59,048 nucleotides of DNA from an uncultured Desulfurococcaceae archaeon (GCA_964404265.1 CAYOJG010000001.1:59112-118159); one strand, 5' to 3'; numbered from the stretch's first letter, positions 4,022-22,580 are shown. Notes: generated by a model not told the origin, from the sequence alone. Numbers and translations: made by a program.

Positions 4022-6100
4022 TTACTGAAAGCCTAGGTATGAAAGCAGGTTGTATTGTATTATTACCTGCACGAACACTAGCGATACTACGCTCATCAGC
4101 TTTATGAGTATATTGAGTGAAGGTCCTGACGCATCCTTGAGCGGGTCACCTACAGTGTCCCCAATTACTGTGGCTTTATGTGCCTCACTGCCTTTACCGC
4201 CGTAGTTTCCTTCCTCAACATATTTCTTTGCATTATCCCATGTGTTACCTACGTTACCTTGAAATAGGCCGAGCAGCAGCCCCGTGATTGTCGCTGCGAG
4301 AAGTGTTCCTGCTAGGGCGTAGGGTCCTAGGACAAACCCTACTACTAGAGGTGCAACTATCGCTAGGAGACCGGGCTTCACCAGCCTTTTAAGTGCGTAG
4401 GAAGTAACTATTGAAACCGCCCTCCCATAGTCAGGCTTCTCCTTAAACTCAAGAATCCCGGGCTTCTCCCTGAACTGCCTCTTGATCTCCTCAATCAGTA
4501 CGAAAGCGGCGTCACTGACCGCGAGAATAACTATGGTGGTGAAGAGCGCTGGAAGTGCTATACCAACTAAAGCTCCCGTGATTACGTTGGCGTTCAGTAT
4601 GCTCATTCTCGCCATGATCTCTTCGAGACTTATGTTAGTTGCGTCAAGTATGGTGCTTGAGTAGGCCCCTATGAATGCTAGGGCCGTTAGTGCTGCCGAC
4701 CCTATCGCGAATCCTTTGGATACTGACTTCATGGTGTTTCCTGCGGAATCCAGCTTATCTGTTATGGCCCTCACACTTTCTCCTAGGCCGGCCTGTTCAG
4801 CTATTCCAGCAGCGTTATCCGTTATGGGCCCGTAAGCATCAGCGCTGACTACTATACCTGCCAAGGAAAGCATTCCTACGGCGGCAAGCGCTACACCGTA
4901 TATACCGAACCAGAACCCGTAGGGGGCGAGAATGAAGTAAGCTATTAATTCAGCGGTAGCTATGCCTATCGCAGGGACGGCAACACTCTCAAAGCCGTAC
5001 GCCATTCCTGTAAGGATTGTTAAGGGTGGACCCTGCTGAGACATGAAAGCAACTTTTCTAACCGGTGGCTTGCTAGGATTAGTGAAGTAGTCGCTCGTCA
5101 GCCCCACAATTATCCCTGCAATTATTCCAGCTATAACTACGGAGAACGCCTTGAGCCCTGCTTCAGCCCCCAGAAGCATGTAGCTCAGTGGGAAAGTGAA
5201 TGCAGCAACTAGCACCCCCGCAATTACTGTCGAAATAGAGAGAGGTTTTGATGGATCGCCACCCTCCTTCACCCTAACGAAGAATGATGTTATTATTGAA
5301 GCGAAAATCCCTGCTGACGCTACAGCTAGTGGAAGTAATGCCCAATTAATCCATGCATCTCCTATGGAAGCTATCAGTGCGGTGGCAGCTATAACCATAG
5401 TGGAGATTATTGAACCTACGTAGGACTCGAAAAGGTCGGCACCCATTCCCGCAACATCTCCGACATTATCACCGACATTGTCGGCAATTACTCCCGGATT
5501 CCTTGGGTCATCCTCAGGAATGCCTTCCTCAACTTTTCCCACGAGGTCAGCCCCAATATCGGCGGCTTTAGTGTATATTCCTCCACCAACCCTAGCGAAA
5601 AGCGCCACTGTGGATGCGCCGAAGCTGTAGCCTATAATGGTTTTAACGGCATCAGATGTTCCTCCATATCCCAGATACTGTAGGCCTATGAGGAGAGTAC
5701 CTACCCCTACAACCATCAGGCCTAGAACCATTCCCCCGTTGAAGGCCACCCGAAGTGCTTTAGAGATTCCGTACTCCTTAGCTGCGTAGGTAGTCCTCAC
5801 ATTAGCGTTTACTGCTATCCACATCCCCACATACCCAGCTATCACGGACGATAGGGCCCCTAAGATGTAGCTGAGTGACATTAAGGGGCTGATGAAGAAA
5901 AGTACCGCCATAATTATTACTGCTATTGTCAATATGACGCTGTACTGCTTCTTCAAGTAGGCCTTGGCGCCCTCCTTTATGTAGTTATGTATCTCGACTA
6001 TCTTTCCAGAGCCTTGAGGCTGCTTCATTACGAACCAAGCTAGAATAAGTGCATAGATAACGGCTAGGGCCCCTGCCGCGATAGTAATAAGTATTAACAT
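4022..6100 (-). CDS. hppA: membrane-bound proton-translocating pyrophosphatase
   Basis: 692-aa polytopic ORF with signatures GGIYTKAADIGADLVGKVE and DNVGDNVGD. Confidence 0.9.
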   Translation of the reverse strand: MLILITIAAGALAVIYALILAWFVMKQPQGSGKIVEIHNYIKEGAKAYLKKQYSVILTIAVIIMAVLFFISPLMSLSYILGALSSVIAGYVGMWIAVNANVRTTYAAKEYGISKALRVAFNGGMVLGLMVVGVGTLLIGLQYLGYGGTSDAVKTIIGYSFGASTVALFARVGGGIYTKAADIGADLVGKVEEGIPEDDPRNPGVIADNVGDNVGDVAGMGADLFESYVGSIISTMVIAATALIASIGDAWINWALLPLAVASAGIFASIITSFFVRVKEGGDPSKPLSISTVIAGVLVAAFTFPLSYMLLGAEAGLKAFSVVIAGIIAGIIVGLTSDYFTNPSKPPVRKVAFMSQQGPPLTILTGMAYGFESVAVPAIGIATAELIAYFILAPYGFWFGIYGVALAAVGMLSLAGIVVSADAYGPITDNAAGIAEQAGLGESVRAITDKLDSAGNTMKSVSKGFAIGSAALTALAFIGAYSSTILDATNISLEEIMARMSILNANVITGALVGIALPALFTTIVILAVSDAAFVLIEEIKRQFREKPGILEFKEKPDYGRAVSIVTSYALKRLVKPGLLAIVAPLVVGFVLGPYALAGTLLAATITGLLLGLFQGNVGNTWDNAKKYVEEGNYGGKGSEAHKATVIGDTVGDPLKDASGPSLNILIKLMSVVSLVFVQVIIQYNLLSYLGFQ

Positions 6101-19276: not shown

Positions 19277-20278
19277 ATGGTTGAGTTGATTGAGTCTATG
19301 CGTTCGGGCGGTGTGGCCGTTGTTGGGGCTGGGGGTGCTGGAGATATTGTTTCAGCTTACGTGACCTGCAGGGTTCTTGAGGATCTTTTCGGTGTTTCTA
19401 GATGTATCCCTGTTGCGGTTCTTTGGGAGAGGTGGGTGCTGGATCCTTTCCCCGGCCCTATACCGAGGGAGGCTTTGAAGGGTGTTAGGGATAGTGATTG
19501 TGTTTGGTTGAGGCATGACTCATGGGTTGAGAGGCCTGGCTACAGGTTCGTTCCTCAGGCATCCATTATTGCTAGGTACGCGGGTGTTGAGGTCCCGGGC
19601 ATCGTTGCTGATGAGGGGCTTTCAGGGTTCAAGAAATGTCTTAAGGAAGTCACTGATTCTGGCTATAGGCATGTCATGGCCCTCGATGTGGGCGGTGACA
19701 TACTTGCGGAAGGACATGAGGAGTGGCTGTGGTCACCCCTCACAGACGCCTTAACACTGGCTGCGGTCGCGGATCTCGACTCCTCCGTAGGTGTTCTCGC
19801 GCCAGGAGCGGACGGGGAGCTTCCCGCTTGGTACGTCCTTGAAAGGATTGAGGAGGCTGCAGAGCTCGGAGGATACCTAGGCTCCATAGGTCTCTGGAGA
19901 GACCATGTAAGGATCTATGAAGAAATACTTCCCCACACAAAAACCGAGGCAGGCCTCATACCCTACAAAGCGCTGAAAGGCGAAATGAGGAAGAACCATA
20001 TAAGGGAAGGGTCAAGGGAAGTCGACATAAACCCAACATCCCCAATAATCTACATACTAACCACCCAAGCAACACTAAAACTCAACAAACTGGCAAACCA
20101 ACTCAAAAACACGGAAACCCTCCAACAAGCAAACCAAACAGCCCACAAACTACAAATACCCACAGAACTAGACCTAGAAAAAGAAATAGCGAAAAACCAC
20201 GGCACAGGCCCACAAACAAAACCAAACTGGACCAAAGCAAGAAACAACATACACAAACAAATAAAGAAACAACCATAA
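19277..20278 (+). CDS. DUF1152-like protein with a compositionally aberrant C-terminal third
   Basis: 333 aa with VVGAGGAGD ... ALDVGGDILAEG motifs recalled from DUF1152. From about nt 19925 the coding DNA is almost pure A/C and the protein becomes K/N/T/Q/H/P-rich. Confidence 0.5.
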   Translation: MVELIESMRSGGVAVVGAGGAGDIVSAYVTCRVLEDLFGVSRCIPVAVLWERWVLDPFPGPIPREALKGVRDSDCVWLRHDSWVERPGYRFVPQASIIARYAGVEVPGIVADEGLSGFKKCLKEVTDSGYRHVMALDVGGDILAEGHEEWLWSPLTDALTLAAVADLDSSVGVLAPGADGELPAWYVLERIEEAAELGGYLGSIGLWRDHVRIYEEILPHTKTEAGLIPYKALKGEMRKNHIREGSREVDINPTSPIIYILTTQATLKLNKLANQLKNTETLQQANQTAHKLQIPTELDLEKEIAKNHGTGPQTKPNWTKARNNIHKQIKKQP

Positions 20279-20313
20279 AACACTTAAAAACCAAACAACC
20301 ACAATAAAGAAAC
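19925..20313. other. extreme A+C-rich top-strand block
   Basis: Hand count of 20041-20100: A28 C21 G3 T8. There is an abrupt onset inside the DUF1152-like ORF, and the block ends at the G-run preceding the tRNA. Confidence 0.85.
20261..20313 (+). repeat. two copies of ATAAAGAAAC (20261-20270, 20304-20313); candidate TATA-like elements upstream of the tRNA
   Basis: Exact 10-mers read from the sequence. A third copy lies at 21504-21513, also immediately 5' of a GC-rich RNA-like segment. Confidence 0.5.
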
Positions 20314-20364
20314 GGGGGGCCAAAGCAGCGGGGTGGGGTAGCCAGGCAGCCCGCGGGGCTCATA

Positions 20365-20388
20365 GGAGCCCGGGCGGCCCGGCACCTA
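20365..20388 (+). other. candidate 24-nt intron at the canonical 37/38 position
   Basis: GGAGCCCGGGCGGCCCGGCACCTA lies between CTCATA and ACCCC. It contains a CCGGG-CGG-CCCGG hairpin. No canonical BHB could be drawn by hand. Confidence 0.4.
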
Positions 20389-20421
20389 ACCCCTAGACGG
20401 CCTAATTCAAGCGTGGAAGTT

Positions 20422-21477
20422 ATGAGCAAAACCTCAAGATGCGTTGAGGAGAGTATTCGTGGAATAACAAACTGCTTTTCTTCTATTGCTAAGGGTGAAG
20501 TCCTACAGATTTGCTGCTTCCAACCAAAGAATGATGATGTAAAACCTCTGCTGTTGAAAGCTTTAGGATTAATTCTCACAGATGGTAATCTCTCCGCACT
20601 CCTTAAGGGATACAGAACTATAGTCTTCCGAGGAGTGAATGAATCGTCAGTTCAATCTATTAGCAAAACATTTCTTCAACTGGGTTCATGCATAAGAATC
20701 AGAAATTATTCTCCTAACGTGGAAAAATTCGGTGTCCCCTCCTTTCAAGTTAGTGTCTTAAGCAAAGGGTCCTTCAGGCCTTTGAAGGAAGAACTCATTA
20801 AACTGCTGAAATCCGTGTTTGAATCCCCTCTTTCTCTCTTTTCTCGATTATCGACTAGGGCTTCTGCTGCTTTTCTAGCAGGGATCCTTGACGGTGATGG
20901 ATATGTTGGGAAAGAGAAGAGATATATTTCTATAGCGCTAAAGAGGAGTTCAAACAAAGGAAGAATTATTCATGAATTTCTTCGATACGTAGAAGCAGTT
21001 GGACTTATTTCTGTCGGAAAATATACAGGTCCACCTAAATATGAAGTAGTTATAACCTTCCCATCTATAGACTATGCCAGATTAGTTTCTGAATATGTTT
21101 ACCATCCTTTGAAGAGGGAGAGATTCCTTAGATACCTTAGAAATGTTGAACGTAGCCGGTACTGTGGTACATCAATAGAGCAGTATAAGGCTATCCTGAT
21201 ACATGCTTCCTATGGTTATCTAATGAAGAAAGGAAATAGTGCTATCCTTGTTCTGTATATACCTGTAAGGCAAGCTAAGAAAGGATTAAGGTCAATAACT
21301 TCAGGAGGCATTCTTCCCAAACCTTTAGTCGCAGGAGGAAGATTAATGATCAAGGTGCCTAAGAAATGTATACCGAATCTGGCGAAGGCCCTAGAGCAAA
21401 GCGACACAAACAGAGTTAATGAGAAGATAGCTGAAGTAGTAAAGACGTATATTAAGGATTATGGTATGTCACCTTAA
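20422..21477 (+). CDS. double-motif LAGLIDADG homing endonuclease-like protein
   Basis: Two dodecapeptide motifs, LLKALGLILTDGNL and AAFLAGILDGDGYV, about 110 aa apart, plus a ~150-aa C-terminal extension. ATG at 20422; the ORF-track GTG is at 20413. Confidence 0.7.
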   Translation: MSKTSRCVEESIRGITNCFSSIAKGEVLQICCFQPKNDDVKPLLLKALGLILTDGNLSALLKGYRTIVFRGVNESSVQSISKTFLQLGSCIRIRNYSPNVEKFGVPSFQVSVLSKGSFRPLKEELIKLLKSVFESPLSLFSRLSTRASAAFLAGILDGDGYVGKEKRYISIALKRSSNKGRIIHEFLRYVEAVGLISVGKYTGPPKYEVVITFPSIDYARLVSEYVYHPLKRERFLRYLRNVERSRYCGTSIEQYKAILIHASYGYLMKKGNSAILVLYIPVRQAKKGLRSITSGGILPKPLVAGGRLMIKVPKKCIPNLAKALEQSDTNRVNEKIAEVVKTYIKDYGMSP

Positions 21478-21503
21478 CTAAAATATTTAAGGCGAGTTGT
21501 AAC

Positions 21504-21513
21504 ATAAAGAAAC
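21504..21513 (+). repeat. third copy of ATAAAGAAAC
   Basis: Exact match to 20261-20270 and 20304-20313. It sits 2 nt upstream of the 13-nt GC-rich segment GCCGGGCCGCCCG. Confidence 0.5.
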
Positions 21514-21578
21514 AGGCCGGGCCGCCCGCCTCGGAGATACACCCTTCAAGGGGTCTGACCCGAGGTCGGTGGTTCAAA

Positions 21579-21602
21579 ACGGGCTGTAAAGGCCCGGGAA
21601 AG
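21579..21602 (+). other. 24-nt intron in the T-loop (about position 59/60) of tRNA-iMet
   Basis: GGTGG-TTCAAA[ACGGGCTGTAAAGGCCCGGGAAAG]T-CCACC. The intron has a CGGGC/GCCCG hairpin. A relaxed bulge-helix-bulge is drawable: T-stem, AGT bulge, TTC/GAA helix, AAAA bulge, hairpin. Confidence 0.6.
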
Positions 21603-21622
21603 TCCACCCCCCGCTACCACAA

Positions 21623-21646
21623 AGAGAAGCCCCCCACCACTTCTCT
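21623..21646. terminator. hairpin between the tRNA 3' end and the convergent protease gene (possible bidirectional terminator)
   Basis: AGAGAAG-CCCCCCACCA-CTTCTCT: a 7-bp stem with a short T-run following on each strand. Function is inferred only. Confidence 0.25.
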
Positions 21647-21649
21647 CCT

Positions 21650-22320
21650 TTGTTCAAAGAAACAAGAGATTGTGCAGACAAGTTCTCTTCCCCTATTTTC
21701 TTTGGTTTGTGTGTTTTGTGGGGTGTGTTGGTGTTGGTATTGGGCCTGGTATGTATTCTACTGTTGGTCTTGCTGGTTTTTCTTGTGGGTATAGTTCCAT
21801 GAGTTGGTATACTTCTTGGGGTAGTTGTGTTTTTACTTTTAGTCCTATTTCTTGTAGGTCTTCTGCGGTTATTGGCCAGTCGTGTGTGTAGGTTCCTTCG
21901 ACTAGTTTTTGTATTGCTTTCTGTATTTGTTGTTGGTTTAGTTTTCCTTGGAGGAGTTTTGTTACTAGTTGTTTTGTTTGGTTGAGTGCTTTTTGGGCTA
22001 TGTCTGCTAGGATTAGTGTTTGGTCGCTTACTTTGTCTGTTCCTTTTTGTTTGACTGCGTTTATTATTGAGGGTGCTGGGTATTGGCCTTGCTGTGTTGT
22101 TAGTTGTGGGTCTACTGGGCCTAGTACTGCGTCGGGGTCCATCCATATTTCGTCGGCTGCTAGTGATATGAGGGTTCCTCCGCTCATTGCGTAGTGGGGG
22201 ATTATCACTATTTTCTTTGCTGGGTGTCTTTTGAGGGCTAGGGCTATCTGTGACGCTGCCAGTAGTAGGCCTCCCGGCGTGTGGAGTATTAAGGCTATAG
22301 GTGTTTCGGGGGGTGTTGAC
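21650..22320. other. extreme G+T-rich top-strand block
   Basis: Hand count of 21721-21780: G22 T28 A4 C6. It covers the 3' two-thirds of the minus-strand protease gene, whose coding strand is therefore A/C-rich. Confidence 0.85.
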
Positions 22321-22580
22321 CTTATTGCCCTAAGGACCTGTTCAGAGTCCTCGATATCTATGAATCTGTATATAGGTATGCCTAGGAGCGAGATCTTCTC
22401 CTGCCTATGGATCATGGTGATTACTTTAGCACCGAGCCTCCTCTCAAGAGCCCTGATTAGGGAGGCCCTAGCGTTCTTAAGCGACTGGTACTTCATGTAG
22501 GGCGTTACGAAAGTTATGAAGATCCATATGAGGAAAAACATCCAAAGCAGGTCCCCGAACGTGGGTGAAGCATCCGCCAA
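21693..22580 (-). CDS. Clp-fold (SDH/DUF114-type) membrane-anchored serine protease-like protein
   Basis: 295 aa. An N-terminal TM segment, then VITMIHRQE...LILHTPGG...HYAMSGGTLISLAADEIWMDPDAVLGPVDPQL, typical of the ClpP/crotonase-fold SDH family. Confidence 0.6.
   Translation of the reverse strand: MADASPTFGDLLWMFFLIWIFITFVTPYMKYQSLKNARASLIRALERRLGAKVITMIHRQEKISLLGIPIYRFIDIEDSEQVLRAIRSTPPETPIALILHTPGGLLLAASQIALALKRHPAKKIVIIPHYAMSGGTLISLAADEIWMDPDAVLGPVDPQLTTQQGQYPAPSIINAVKQKGTDKVSDQTLILADIAQKALNQTKQLVTKLLQGKLNQQQIQKAIQKLVEGTYTHDWPITAEDLQEIGLKVKTQLPQEVYQLMELYPQEKPARPTVEYIPGPIPTPTHPTKHTNQRK

Follow-up and report, generated by a model that had tools for sequence, protein, structure and literature searches.

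A 59-kb stretch of DNA from the genome of an uncultured Desulfurococcaceae archaeon (59,048 nt; referred to here as the window) contains, at positions 20327–21619 of its plus strand, a complete initiator tRNA gene (tRNA-iMet(CAU)) once three predicted introns are taken out. It is highly likely (probability roughly 0.85) that this is a working gene with three introns of the archaeal bulge-helix-bulge (BHB) type, the largest of which encodes a homing endonuclease, the junctions and the splicing being predicted. The case is built on the anatomy of the gene, the geometry of the BHB motifs, covariation, the family and predicted fold of the encoded protein, and the pattern of presence and absence across orthologous loci; from these we infer an order of splicing, an activity and target for the endonuclease, and use of the promoter-like boxes. 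A first-pass annotation had proposed that an archaeal initiator tRNA gene is interrupted here by about 1.2 kb of LAGLIDADG-encoding DNA, and that proposal is supported and strengthened by the comparative data. The window intron is not a one-off: it is one of an intron family present in dozens of Desulfurococcales metagenome-assembled genomes. All features described below lie on the plus strand.

The gene as predicted after splicing, and its flanks

The gene comprises four exons. Exon 1 (20327–20364; 38 nt) supplies tRNA positions 1–37 and ends in CUCAUA, which includes the CAU anticodon; its sequence is identical or nearly so in all related loci. Exon 2 (21539–21540) consists of only two nucleotides, A38 and C39, and is followed by exon 3 (21559–21578; tRNA positions 40–59) and exon 4 (21603–21619; positions 60–76, with CCA encoded). 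The joined sequence of 77 nt is called tRNA-Met(CAT) by ARAGORN, with an acceptor stem of 7 bp (A1:U72), a D stem of 4 bp (one G.U), a T stem of 5 bp, and an anticodon stem of 5 bp made up of four G:C pairs and C27:G43; the expectation that the joined segments would give an initiator tRNA with all its stems is thus borne out. The CAU anticodon, the A1:U72 pair and the consecutive G:C pairs at the base of the anticodon stem are those of archaeal initiator tRNA-Met, and the exons are common to the window gene and the tRNA-iMet genes of other archaea. Neither ARAGORN nor Rfam reports a tRNA in the unspliced window DNA, and the gene surfaced only after manual splicing; it is therefore invisible to standard finders.

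Outside the acceptor stem the transcript could form a 7-bp leader-trailer helix, in which the leader strand GGGGGGC (20314–20320) pairs with GCCCCCC at 21629–21635; the trailer strand is followed by ACCA, a look-alike of the acceptor end, and then by a T-rich run (trailer feature 21629–21639). In relatives the corresponding strands read GGCGGGG(C/U) and (G)CCCCGCC, a compensatory change, and NCCA after the outer helix is kept in nearly all of them. The possibility that EndA also processes the ends, through a further BHB formed by this helix and the acceptor stem, was considered and rejected because hand analysis of the sequence showed that the geometry does not fit. Upstream lies a TATA-like box, CTTAAAAA (20283–20290), preceded by an A-rich BRE-like stretch and probably serving as the promoter of the gene; its TTAAAA core starts 30 nt ahead of the leader helix, and a box at 30–33 nt upstream of that helix is found in 16 of 22 related loci.

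Three predicted introns and their BHB motifs

A BHB motif was taken to consist of two opposed 3-nt bulges around a 4-bp helix, with flanking helices, and with cleavage after the second nucleotide of each bulge. The window introns show this bulge geometry, their removal restores a tRNA, and their helices carry compensatory changes among relatives. Intron I (20365–21538; 1174 nt) occupies the canonical position 37/38 and contains the endonuclease ORF. In the core of its motif (BHB-I) GAG at 20366–20368 pairs with CUC at 21530–21532, and GGAG at 21533–21536 faces the CUCA of the anticodon loop, leaving UA|G and AU|A as the 3-nt bulges. The same core, RGAG...CUC-GGAG-NN|A, occurs in ordinary ORF-less 37/38 introns of 21–41 nt in tRNA-iMet genes of Desulfurococcales and Thorarchaeota. 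Intron I is closed by a long-range helix of 13 bp, whose 5′ strand CGGGCGGCCCGGC (20371–20383) pairs perfectly with the 3′ strand GCCGGGCCGCCCG (21516–21528); a helix of 11–21 bp is found at the same place in every related lineage with differing sequence, and covariation is seen at 7 pairs.

Intron II (21541–21558; 18 nt) lies at position 39/40 and, as judged from covariation and fold, has a canonical hBHBh′ structure (BHB-II). By hand analysis the 3′ end of intron I, CCUCGGAGAU (21529–21538), has a dual use: it gives the h′, H and bulge elements to BHB-I and also the outer (CCUCGG) and central (AGAU) helix strands to BHB-II, in which 21529–21534 pair with 21560–21565 and 21535–21538 pair with 21553–21556, all four central pairs being formed. 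Across 15 sequences 92.8% of the cells in this pairing are paired and 6 pairs are changed on both sides, a result matched by none of 500 shuffles, while registers slid from this one pair at only 27–60%; the local fold has an energy of -18.3 kcal/mol (z = -2.46). Exon 2 is placed at the sole junction that fits the geometry of BHB-II and gives the mature tRNA, and AC is kept at this place in every relative that has intron II.

Intron III (21579–21602; 24 nt), at position 59/60, is ORF-less and of the BHB type as judged from its fold, and it falls exactly where the first-pass annotation had put it. It folds into the T stem, an interior loop of 7/7 nt (a 4-bp H element plus a 3-nt bulge on each side) and an inner helix of 6 bp. 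For both BHB-I and BHB-III, RNAalifold and RNAfold give an outer helix, a 7/7-nt interior loop and an inner helix; the central helices have 3 of 4 pairs with an A.G mismatch, and the 3-nt bulges are correct. The minimum-energy fold of the BHB-I construct favors the adjacent register on the 5′ side. In minimum-energy folds of the whole precursor with the ORF cut out the BHBs are not directly seen, and targeted constructs and alignments are needed to reveal them. Self-splicing of intron I as a group I or group II intron was rejected because no ribozyme covariance model matched, either at Rfam gathering thresholds across the window or up to E = 10 within 20250–21700.

The encoded endonuclease

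The ORF within intron I (20422–21477) encodes a protein of 351 aa when read from ATG 20422, or 354 aa from GTG 20413, both ending at 21477; the database gene call is shorter (307 aa). Its product is a LAGLIDADG endonuclease with two motifs, presumably monomeric, whose predicted fold resembles that of I-DmoI; a C-terminal extension of ~130 aa lies outside the LAGLIDADG core. The profile search proposed in the first-pass annotation gave a match to Pfam LAGLIDADG_3 at 25.7 bits (cut-off 22.5), and the two motifs, which had been placed about 110 aa apart, were found 105 aa apart as KALGLILTDG (D54) and AAFLAGILDGDG (D159); the motif residues, including both catalytic Asp residues (D54 and D159), are invariant among 7 sequences. 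The AlphaFold2 model (pLDDT 80.8, pTM 0.74) has the two-fold alpha-beta-beta-alpha-beta-beta-alpha core of the family, and its best Foldseek matches in the PDB are PI-SceI and I-DmoI (probability 1.0; TM-score 0.54–0.59 at I-DmoI length). A PDB search with sequence only gives a weak match to I-DmoI (E = 0.034). No promoter-like box was found upstream of the window ORF, unlike in several relatives.

Related loci

All 10 database relatives of the ORF are located at position 37/38 of tRNA-iMet genes in uncultured Desulfurococcales, as are ~20 further loci; the comparators are all metagenome assemblies of uncultured organisms. When the same splicing rules are applied to the related loci, a tRNA-Met accepted by ARAGORN results in 33 of 33. 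The exons are near-identical across more than 30 loci, whereas the endonucleases are only 26–39% identical to that of the window, which thus has at most 39% identity to any relative.

The orthologous locus is defined by genes for proteasome-alpha and a DUF1152 protein upstream. Comparison of this locus for intron-less alleles, as the first-pass annotation had suggested, turned up an empty site (L068), along with a mini-intron (L064) and ORF-bearing introns in the window and five further loci (L001, L004, L038, L050 and L051). The occurrence of empty, ORF-less mini-intron and ORF-bearing states at orthologous loci is the pattern of a mobile intron. Two further loci, assigned by their iMet 37/38 context and with flanking genes that were not matched, carry a broken ORF (L012) and a remnant of ~265 nt (L040). 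At 59/60 the introns of relatives measure 0, 30–50, 187–283 or 712–955 nt, and the long ones carry a second LAGLIDADG ORF. Four loci (L010, L011, L015 and L023) were at first read as split 3′ halves. That reading was withdrawn for L015, which has a large 30/31 insert, since the first 30 nt of its tRNA lie ~1.3 kb upstream, and for L023, where the 5′ part of the tRNA and a promoter are also present upstream; the upstream sequence of L010 and L011 is short.

Proposed expression, splicing and homing

Transcription would start ~14 nt upstream of tRNA position 1, and the anatomy of the precursor suggests an order in which it may be spliced. The local hairpin 21529–21565 would form a canonical BHB in the 3′ part of the transcript, where cleavage by EndA and joining by the RtcB ligase would remove the 18-nt intron II; A38-C39 would thereby be joined to C40, completing the 3′ strand of the anticodon stem. 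BHB-I could then form from the anticodon stem, a central helix of four positions (CUCA/GGAG) and two 3-nt bulges, with an inner helix composed of GAG/CUC and the 13-bp GC clamp that would unite sites 1174 nt apart, and cutting at this motif would free intron I. Because BHB-I can form only after removal of intron II, splicing of intron I is predicted to come second. For the 24-nt intron III, which interrupts the T loop, removal would take place at a BHB of its own. At the DNA level the endonuclease, by analogy with archaeal rRNA introns, would cut intron-less tRNA-iMet alleles near 37/38, and repair would copy the intron into them (homing).

Alternative interpretations

The first-pass exon map is correct in exon 1 (20327–20364) and exon 4 (21603–21619) and differs in between: it has a 24-nt intron at 20365–20388, a micro-exon ACCCC at 20389–20393, an intron of 1168 nt (20394–21561) at position 42/43, and a third exon starting at 21562. 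It yields the identical mature sequence, and 6 of 22 large-intron loci also have ACCCC after the 5′ helix strand. However, neither of its junction pairs forms a BHB or relaxed BHB on hand analysis, ACCCC arises by chance in 39% of intron shuffles, and the other 16 of the 22 loci have no ACCCC anywhere in the intron and are correctly spliced, in prediction, under the map preferred here, whose junctions are exactly those set by the covarying canonical BHB. The ACCCC exon is thus best seen as a chance 5-mer, absent from most relatives, and its map as scarcely credible. In the corrected map A38 and C39 come from 21539–21540 and C40–C42 from 21559–21561, with the 18-nt intron (21541–21558) between them, so that the third exon starts at 21559. 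It is also very improbable that this tRNA gene is defunct, an inserted endonuclease gene having broken it up, with the work done by a separate intact tRNA-iMet elsewhere. Such a reading could appeal to the silence of the standard finders at this locus and to the data being a 59-kb window only, but it would have to accommodate exons that are essentially invariant in more than 30 loci while the intron proteins fell to 26–39% identity, three BHB motifs that are all intact with compensatory changes, and a promoter box, leader-trailer helix and encoded CCA that are all conserved. Because it is syntenic with intron-free and mini-intron alleles, the locus is the resident iMet gene. Somewhat less remote, though still unlikely, is that the ORF no longer encodes a mobile endonuclease and is an inactive passenger or has another role, for example one in which the C-terminal extension lets the protein bind its own RNA or DNA. 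The age of the intron lineage (at most 39% identity to any relative), the absence of the upstream promoter-like box seen in relatives and the ~130-aa extension outside the core are in keeping with that idea; against it, the reading frame is unbroken, no member of the family departs from the shared motif residues or from the two catalytic Asp, and degenerate or deleted relatives (L012 and L040) fit selection through a cycle of invasion and not through benefit to the host.

A different question is whether the gene is, at least in part, a tRNA split in cis, its 5′ and 3′ pieces being separately transcribed, the second from an internal promoter at ~21486. We regard this as possible but doubtful. 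The 5′ piece would contain the leader, exon 1, a helix strand and the endonuclease mRNA, and the 3′ piece would start with the complementary helix strand and hold introns II and III with the later exons; the pieces would anneal by the 13-bp GC helix, and the same BHB would be cut and ligated in trans, as for the split tRNAs of Nanoarchaeum. The candidate internal promoter for the 3′ part is a BRE/TATA-like box, AAAATATTTAAGG (21486–21491), that comes directly after the stop codon of the ORF and 30 nt before the 3′ helix strand. Of 19 large-intron loci, 15 have a box of this kind (AAAG-TTTAWAAG type) at 26–36 nt, mostly 30–31 nt, ahead of the 3′ helix strand, compared with ~11% expected from box density, although these counts are not independent because the introns are A+T-rich and related by descent. 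Consistent with separate transcription, the distance matches the 30–33 nt that separate the promoter box of the gene from the leader helix, several large 59/60 introns have the same arrangement of boxes at their 3′ ends, the putative 3′ transcript wholly contains BHB-II, and the window has a copy of ATAAAGAAAC immediately ahead of each of the two helix strands (20304–20313 and 21504–21513). Split tRNA genes are defined by pieces at separate loci, however, and here a single strand carries every piece, in collinear order, within 1.3 kb. The pieces are neighbors on one strand in every case, so that read-through yields an ordinary cis intron, and no evident terminator separates the ORF stop from the internal box.

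Significance

Archaeal tRNA introns are described in reviews as short, non-coding and of unknown mobility (PMC4033280, PMC4090602), and homing endonucleases are on record only from archaeal rRNA introns, inteins and group I introns (PMC4496867, PMC6125680). A search of the full-text literature, with most subscription journals outside it, turned up no account of an archaeal tRNA gene whose BHB intron encodes a homing endonuclease, in agreement with the first-pass suggestion that the initiator tRNA is a new host context for a homing element. The window and its relatives present an initiator tRNA gene interrupted, at the canonical site for tRNA introns, by a BHB intron of about a kilobase that encodes an endonuclease, with what appears to be an obligate order of splicing around a 2-nt exon. 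They offer a concrete DNA-level route for the gain of tRNA introns, in which mini-introns would be deletion remnants; and, if the internal promoter is real, a direct path by which tRNA genes with introns could become split ones, a matter of long debate. Because standard tRNA finders miss such genes, these archaeal genomes will seem to have no initiator tRNA.

More speculatively, endonuclease-bearing BHB introns might be the missing step from tRNA genes with introns to split ones, and also a vehicle of archaeal tRNA-intron mobility. The suggestion is a tentative one, as a whole less likely to hold than to fail: the introns would home into sites 30/31, 37/38 and 59/60, in the palindromic arms of the initiator tRNA gene, would decay into the ordinary mini-introns of relatives, and would leave the gene pre-adapted to physical splitting by rearrangement. 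By bringing in a GC clamp and their own downstream promoter, such introns would allow each tRNA piece to be made separately and joined in trans.

Comparison with known systems

The closest counterparts of intron I are the BHB introns of archaeal rRNA genes (I-DmoI from the 23S rRNA of Desulfurococcus mobilis, I-PorI, I-ApeI and I-Vdi141I), which share with it the BHB and long closing helix, a LAGLIDADG endonuclease on the sense strand, occurrence in the same archaeal order and a predicted fold that matches I-DmoI. The host here, in contrast, is an initiator tRNA interrupted at the canonical tRNA intron position 37/38, and the window protein differs from I-DmoI in its length of 351 aa, its extra C-terminal region and its weak sequence similarity (E = 0.034). 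Splicing of intron I, unlike that of the rRNA introns, would also depend on earlier removal of a neighboring mini-intron, and the window intron has a conserved promoter-like box at its 3′ end; we know of no such box in archaeal rRNA introns. As in the family described here, shortened derivatives that have lost the ORF occur beside complete introns in rRNA genes (PMC2738675, PMC4496867).

An initiator tRNA whose anticodon loop is interrupted by a homing-endonuclease intron is also found in cyanobacteria. There a group I intron of tRNA-fMet reportedly encodes I-Ssp6803I, a finding said to be that of Bonocora and Shub in 2001. The cyanobacterial intron is a bacterial self-splicing group I ribozyme with a PD-(D/E)XK endonuclease, whereas in the window no ribozyme was detected, splicing by protein enzymes is predicted, and the endonuclease is of the LAGLIDADG family (for general background see PMC3984707). 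Multiple-intron tRNA genes of Crenarchaeota, in particular Thermoproteales, can have as many as three BHB introns (Sugahara et al. 2008, Fujishima et al. 2010; review PMC4033280) and, like the window gene, have introns at non-canonical positions including 59/60 and mutually dependent BHBs; the crenarchaeal endonuclease accepts relaxed motifs. The Thermoproteales introns are described as short (<100 nt) and non-coding (PMC4033280), and how they spread is unknown, whereas the 1174-nt intron described here encodes a homing endonuclease, which is a known mechanism of mobility at the DNA level.

Split, tri-split and permuted tRNA genes are known from Nanoarchaeum equitans (including tRNA-iMet at 37/38), from Caldivirga (tri-split tRNA-Gly) and from Desulfurococcales (split tRNA-Asp and tRNA-Lys), and in Thermofilum pendens the tRNA-iMet gene is permuted, the junction lying at 59/60, and also has a 37/38 intron (PMC3218864). 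The window gene and its relatives have in common with them GC-rich complementary flanks that rebuild a BHB, break points at 37/38, 59/60 and 30/31, and, possibly, a separate promoter for the downstream piece. The window gene differs in that its pieces are adjacent and collinear on one strand with the endonuclease gene between them, and their separate transcription is only suggested by the internal box.

An initiator tRNA gene interrupted by an endonuclease ORF

In the first-pass annotation an initiator tRNA was assembled from four segments (20327-20364, 20389-20393, 21562-21578 and 21603-21619) enclosing an ORF for a LAGLIDADG endonuclease. The sequence matches that description, and both components are real. 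ARAGORN reads the 77-nt join of the four segments as tRNA-Met(CAT), with stems of 7 bp (acceptor, beginning at A1:U72), 4 bp (D), 5 bp (anticodon, G:C-rich) and 5 bp (T) and with an encoded CCA; the ORF, in the profile search proposed in the same annotation, scores 25.7 bits against Pfam LAGLIDADG_3 (curated cut-off 22.5). ARAGORN finds no tRNA in the unspliced 59-kb window, and Rfam gives zero matches there at gathering thresholds and nothing relevant in 20250-21700 when relaxed to E up to 10. The original interpretation is upheld, but not its exon map.

Predicted introns and order of splicing

In the revised map, exon 1 (20327-20364, tRNA positions 1-37) is followed by predicted intron I (20365-21538, 1174 nt, at 37/38), exon 2 (21539-21540, A38 C39), intron II (21541-21558, 18 nt, at 39/40), exon 3 (21559-21578, positions 40-59), intron III (21579-21602, 24 nt, at 59/60) and exon 4 (21603-21619, positions 60-76); the mature product is identical under both maps. 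Intron I is closed by a long-range GC helix (the clamp), in which 20371-20383 (CGGGCGGCCCGGC) is perfectly complementary over 13 bp to 21516-21528, 1.1 kb away. Outward from the clamp, bulge-helix-bulge motif BHB-I consists of GAG (20366-20368) paired with CUC (21530-21532), a central helix in which C32-U33-C34 pairs with the G-A-G of GGAG (21533-21536) and A35 lies opposite G, and 3-nt bulges, U36-A37-G20365 on one strand and A21537-U21538-A21539 on the other; the predicted cuts fall after A37 (20364) and before A21539. BHB-II (21529-21565) is fully canonical, with an outer helix of CCUCGG (21529-21534) and CCGAGG (21560-21565), a central helix of AGAU (21535-21538) and GUCU (21553-21556), bulges ACA (21539-21541) and GAC (21557-21559), and an inner hairpin (21542-21552); its predicted cuts excise 21541-21558, the sole deletion that turns A-C-...-CCCGAGG into A38-C39-C40-C41-C42-G43. 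Intron III folds as the T stem, a 7/7-nt interior loop and a 6-bp helix, and BHB-III has 4+3 geometry (U54-A, U55-A, C56-G, and A57 opposite G).

The micro-exon ACCCC (20389-20393) of the earlier map is rejected because neither junction has a BHB motif, 39% of shuffles of the window intron contain this 5-mer by chance, and it is not general among relatives, any ACCCC occurring in the intron at only 6 of 22 large-intron loci. The sequence ACCCCTAG lies 3' of the clamp's 5' strand both in the window (20384-20396) and in the 265-nt remnant intron of related locus L040, and ACCCC also follows that strand in the L006/L017 and L007/L027/L035 lineages; in this position the 5-mer may be a relic that these introns share, or it may stand in transiently for the anticodon stem's 3' strand.

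One strand of BHB-II is formed by the last ten nucleotides of intron I, so that BHB-II could no longer form if intron I were removed first; BHB-I in turn needs an anticodon stem whose 3' strand, C39-G43, is contiguous only once intron II has gone. This anatomy suggests that intron II is excised before intron I, in which case the 2-nt exon would never be a free dinucleotide.

Related loci and conservation

Searches of 5.8 billion proteins gave 6 relatives of the ORF with a single sequence and 10 with a profile, and 9 of the 9 examined (all but the tenth, P0010) lie directly 3' of the CUCAUA of a tRNA-iMet gene. One of these relatives, at locus L001 (a Desulfurococcales MAG, NCBI GCA_027023255.1), is in a region syntenic with the window, in the order proteasome alpha, DUF1152, tRNA, SDH-type protease. 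A scan of one genome per species, using the exon-intron junction as query, gave 41 loci, ~32 of them archaeal (Desulfurococcales, Acidilobaceae, Thermoprotei MAGs and three Thorarchaeota), and a scan of metagenomes, for which the query was the window-clade leader joined to exon 1, added 21; the comparator loci are all from metagenomes. Position 37/38 is empty in some of these loci; others have an intron of 21-62 nt that lacks an ORF but has the same core (RGAG...CUC-GGAG-NN), the ~265-nt remnant (L040), or a 1.0-1.4-kb intron with a 300-400-aa ORF that is intact in ~20 loci and broken in L012. Two loci, L068 (empty site) and L064 (22-nt intron), adjoin the same DUF1152 gene as the window, with a proteasome-alpha gene also present at L068, and they are alleles of the window's locus in related lineages; the comparison of orthologous loci proposed in the first-pass annotation has yielded an intron-less allele (L068).

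Applied to the 33 complete loci, the window's splicing rules produce a tRNA-Met(CAT) by ARAGORN in every case (33/33). Across 15 aligned BHB-II regions, 92.8% of cells are paired and both partners have changed in 6 of the 15 pairs, values reached by 0 of 500 shuffles; sliding the partner by 1-3 columns lowers pairing to 27-60%, and in one lineage the central helix AGAU/GUCU has become GGAU/AUCC. The RNAalifold consensus of BHB-I comprises the anticodon stem and a 7/7 loop, then the invariant GAG/CUC and a long helix, in which seven pairs covary. The clamp measures 11-21 bp per locus, with unrelated sequences (e.g. GAGCGGUGGCCCGGUUGCC in L005 and CAGGGGCUGUCGGCC in L012). The mature tRNA is nearly constant (no more than 12 variants across the 33 loci, differing mainly in the D arm), whereas identity of the intron proteins to that of the window is just 26-39%; this contrast, along with the intact motifs, speaks against a pseudogene.

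The predicted endonuclease

The ORF runs from 20422 (ATG) or 20413 (GTG) to 21477 (stop codon 21475-21477). In a 7-sequence alignment K46, G49, L50, D54 and G55 of LAGLIDADG motif 1 and A150, G154, D157, G158, D159 and G160 of motif 2 are invariant. Its AlphaFold2 model (pLDDT 80.8) matches the PI-SceI endonuclease domain and I-DmoI in fold comparison with probability 1.0 (TM-score 0.54-0.59 on I-DmoI length); when sequence alone is compared with the PDB, there is just a weak match, at E = 0.034, to the half of a chimera that derives from I-DmoI. Residues ~225-351 make up an additional region, whose only matches are faint and winged-helix-like. The putative target would span the 37/38 site of the intron-less allele, a site within the inverted repeat formed by anticodon-stem DNA. 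Just 38 nt separate the clamp from the ORF ATG in the window, with no promoter-like box between them; at L001, L071, L072 and L073 a strong box of this kind (CACTTTATAAGTGC) lies in intron I, 50-60 nt before the ORF's start codon.

Flanks and further insertion sites

Just outside the acceptor stem is a 7-bp leader-trailer helix (GGGGGGC/GCCCCCC; 20314-20320 with the 21629-21639 region), which, with the ACCA and T-rich run that come after it, resembles a second acceptor end. Relatives show compensatory change, GGCGGGG(C/U) with (G)CCCCGCC plus (A/G)CCA, and NCCA is nearly always kept; no BHB geometry joins this helix to the tRNA. It could be a precursor clamp or an alternative G1:C72 end. The flanks (20160-20310 and 21640-21760) are strongly strand-asymmetric, C+A-rich upstream and G+T-rich downstream, and neighbouring ORFs 19277-20278 (+) and 21693-22580 (-) enter them as low-complexity tails; their annotated ends may therefore be over-extended.

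In eight relatives (L001 at 4190-4967, L006, L010, L011, L017, L030, L050 and L058) the 59/60 intron is 712-801 nt, is closed by a 14-18-bp helix and carries a second, unrelated LAGLIDADG ORF of ~200-230 aa (Pfam LAGLIDADG_3, 52 bits). Window intron III keeps the 5' end (ACGGGC) and 3' end (CCCGGGAAAG) of these large introns, as would be expected of a deletion remnant. A third site of large inserts is 30/31 (L055, L056, L052 and L015), where they measure 1.27-1.5 kb and have a long GC helix as closure; the L052 insert (1.39 kb) runs off the contig end, so that its closing helix would lie outside the sequence. The inserts of L055, L056 and L052, the three covered by the ORF scan, contain an ORF of ~400 aa that runs antisense to the tRNA and has LAGLIDADG-like motifs (FLAGVIDGDG), its Pfam match being below threshold.

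Promoter-like boxes

Directly 3' of the endonuclease stop codon lies AAAATATTTAAGG, and the box TTTAAG (21486-21491) starts 30 nt before the clamp 3' strand. In 15 of 19 large-intron loci a TTWWAR or TATAWA box, usually preceded by AAAG, occurs 26-36 nt (mostly 30-31) upstream of the same strand (~11% expected from box density in these introns), and in several of the large introns at 59/60 a similar box stands ahead of the clamp 3' strand. This spacing is like that of the tRNA gene's own putative promoter box, 30-33 nt before the leader helix (in the window CTTAAAAA, 20283-20290, whose TTAAAA core starts 30 nt before 20314). Together the boxes suggest that the tRNA 3' part may be transcribed separately and trans-joined in the manner of split tRNA genes. 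Given the common ancestry of the loci and the A+T-richness of the introns, this reading is considered rather unlikely; it would leave the predicted splice sites unchanged. The 10-mer ATAAAGAAAC occurs at 20304-20313 and 21504-21513, immediately upstream of the leader helix and the clamp 3' strand, respectively, both times between a promoter-like box and the predicted start point.

Comparison with known systems

In archaeal rRNA genes, those of Desulfurococcales among them, BHB introns that carry LAGLIDADG ORFs are well established (PMC4496867, PMC2738675), and archaeal tRNA introns have been reviewed as short (<100 nt), with a maximum of three per gene (PMC4033280); the words "homing" and "ORF" are absent from a 2014 review of tRNA intron handling. 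The split tRNA-iMet of Nanoarchaeum (at 37/38) and that of Thermofilum pendens, which is permuted at 59/60 and has an intron at 37/38 (PMC3218864), are broken at the same positions as here. No report of a BHB intron in an archaeal tRNA gene that carries an endonuclease ORF was found in the full-text literature, whose coverage was incomplete. As read from sequence, the finding is real and combines a BHB intron, a LAGLIDADG homing element and a multi-intron tRNA, in a family present in uncultured Desulfurococcales. The closest functional counterpart is bacterial, namely the group I intron of cyanobacterial tRNA-fMet, which encodes I-Ssp6803I; unlike the window's intron I, with its LAGLIDADG protein, it is self-splicing and its endonuclease belongs to another class.
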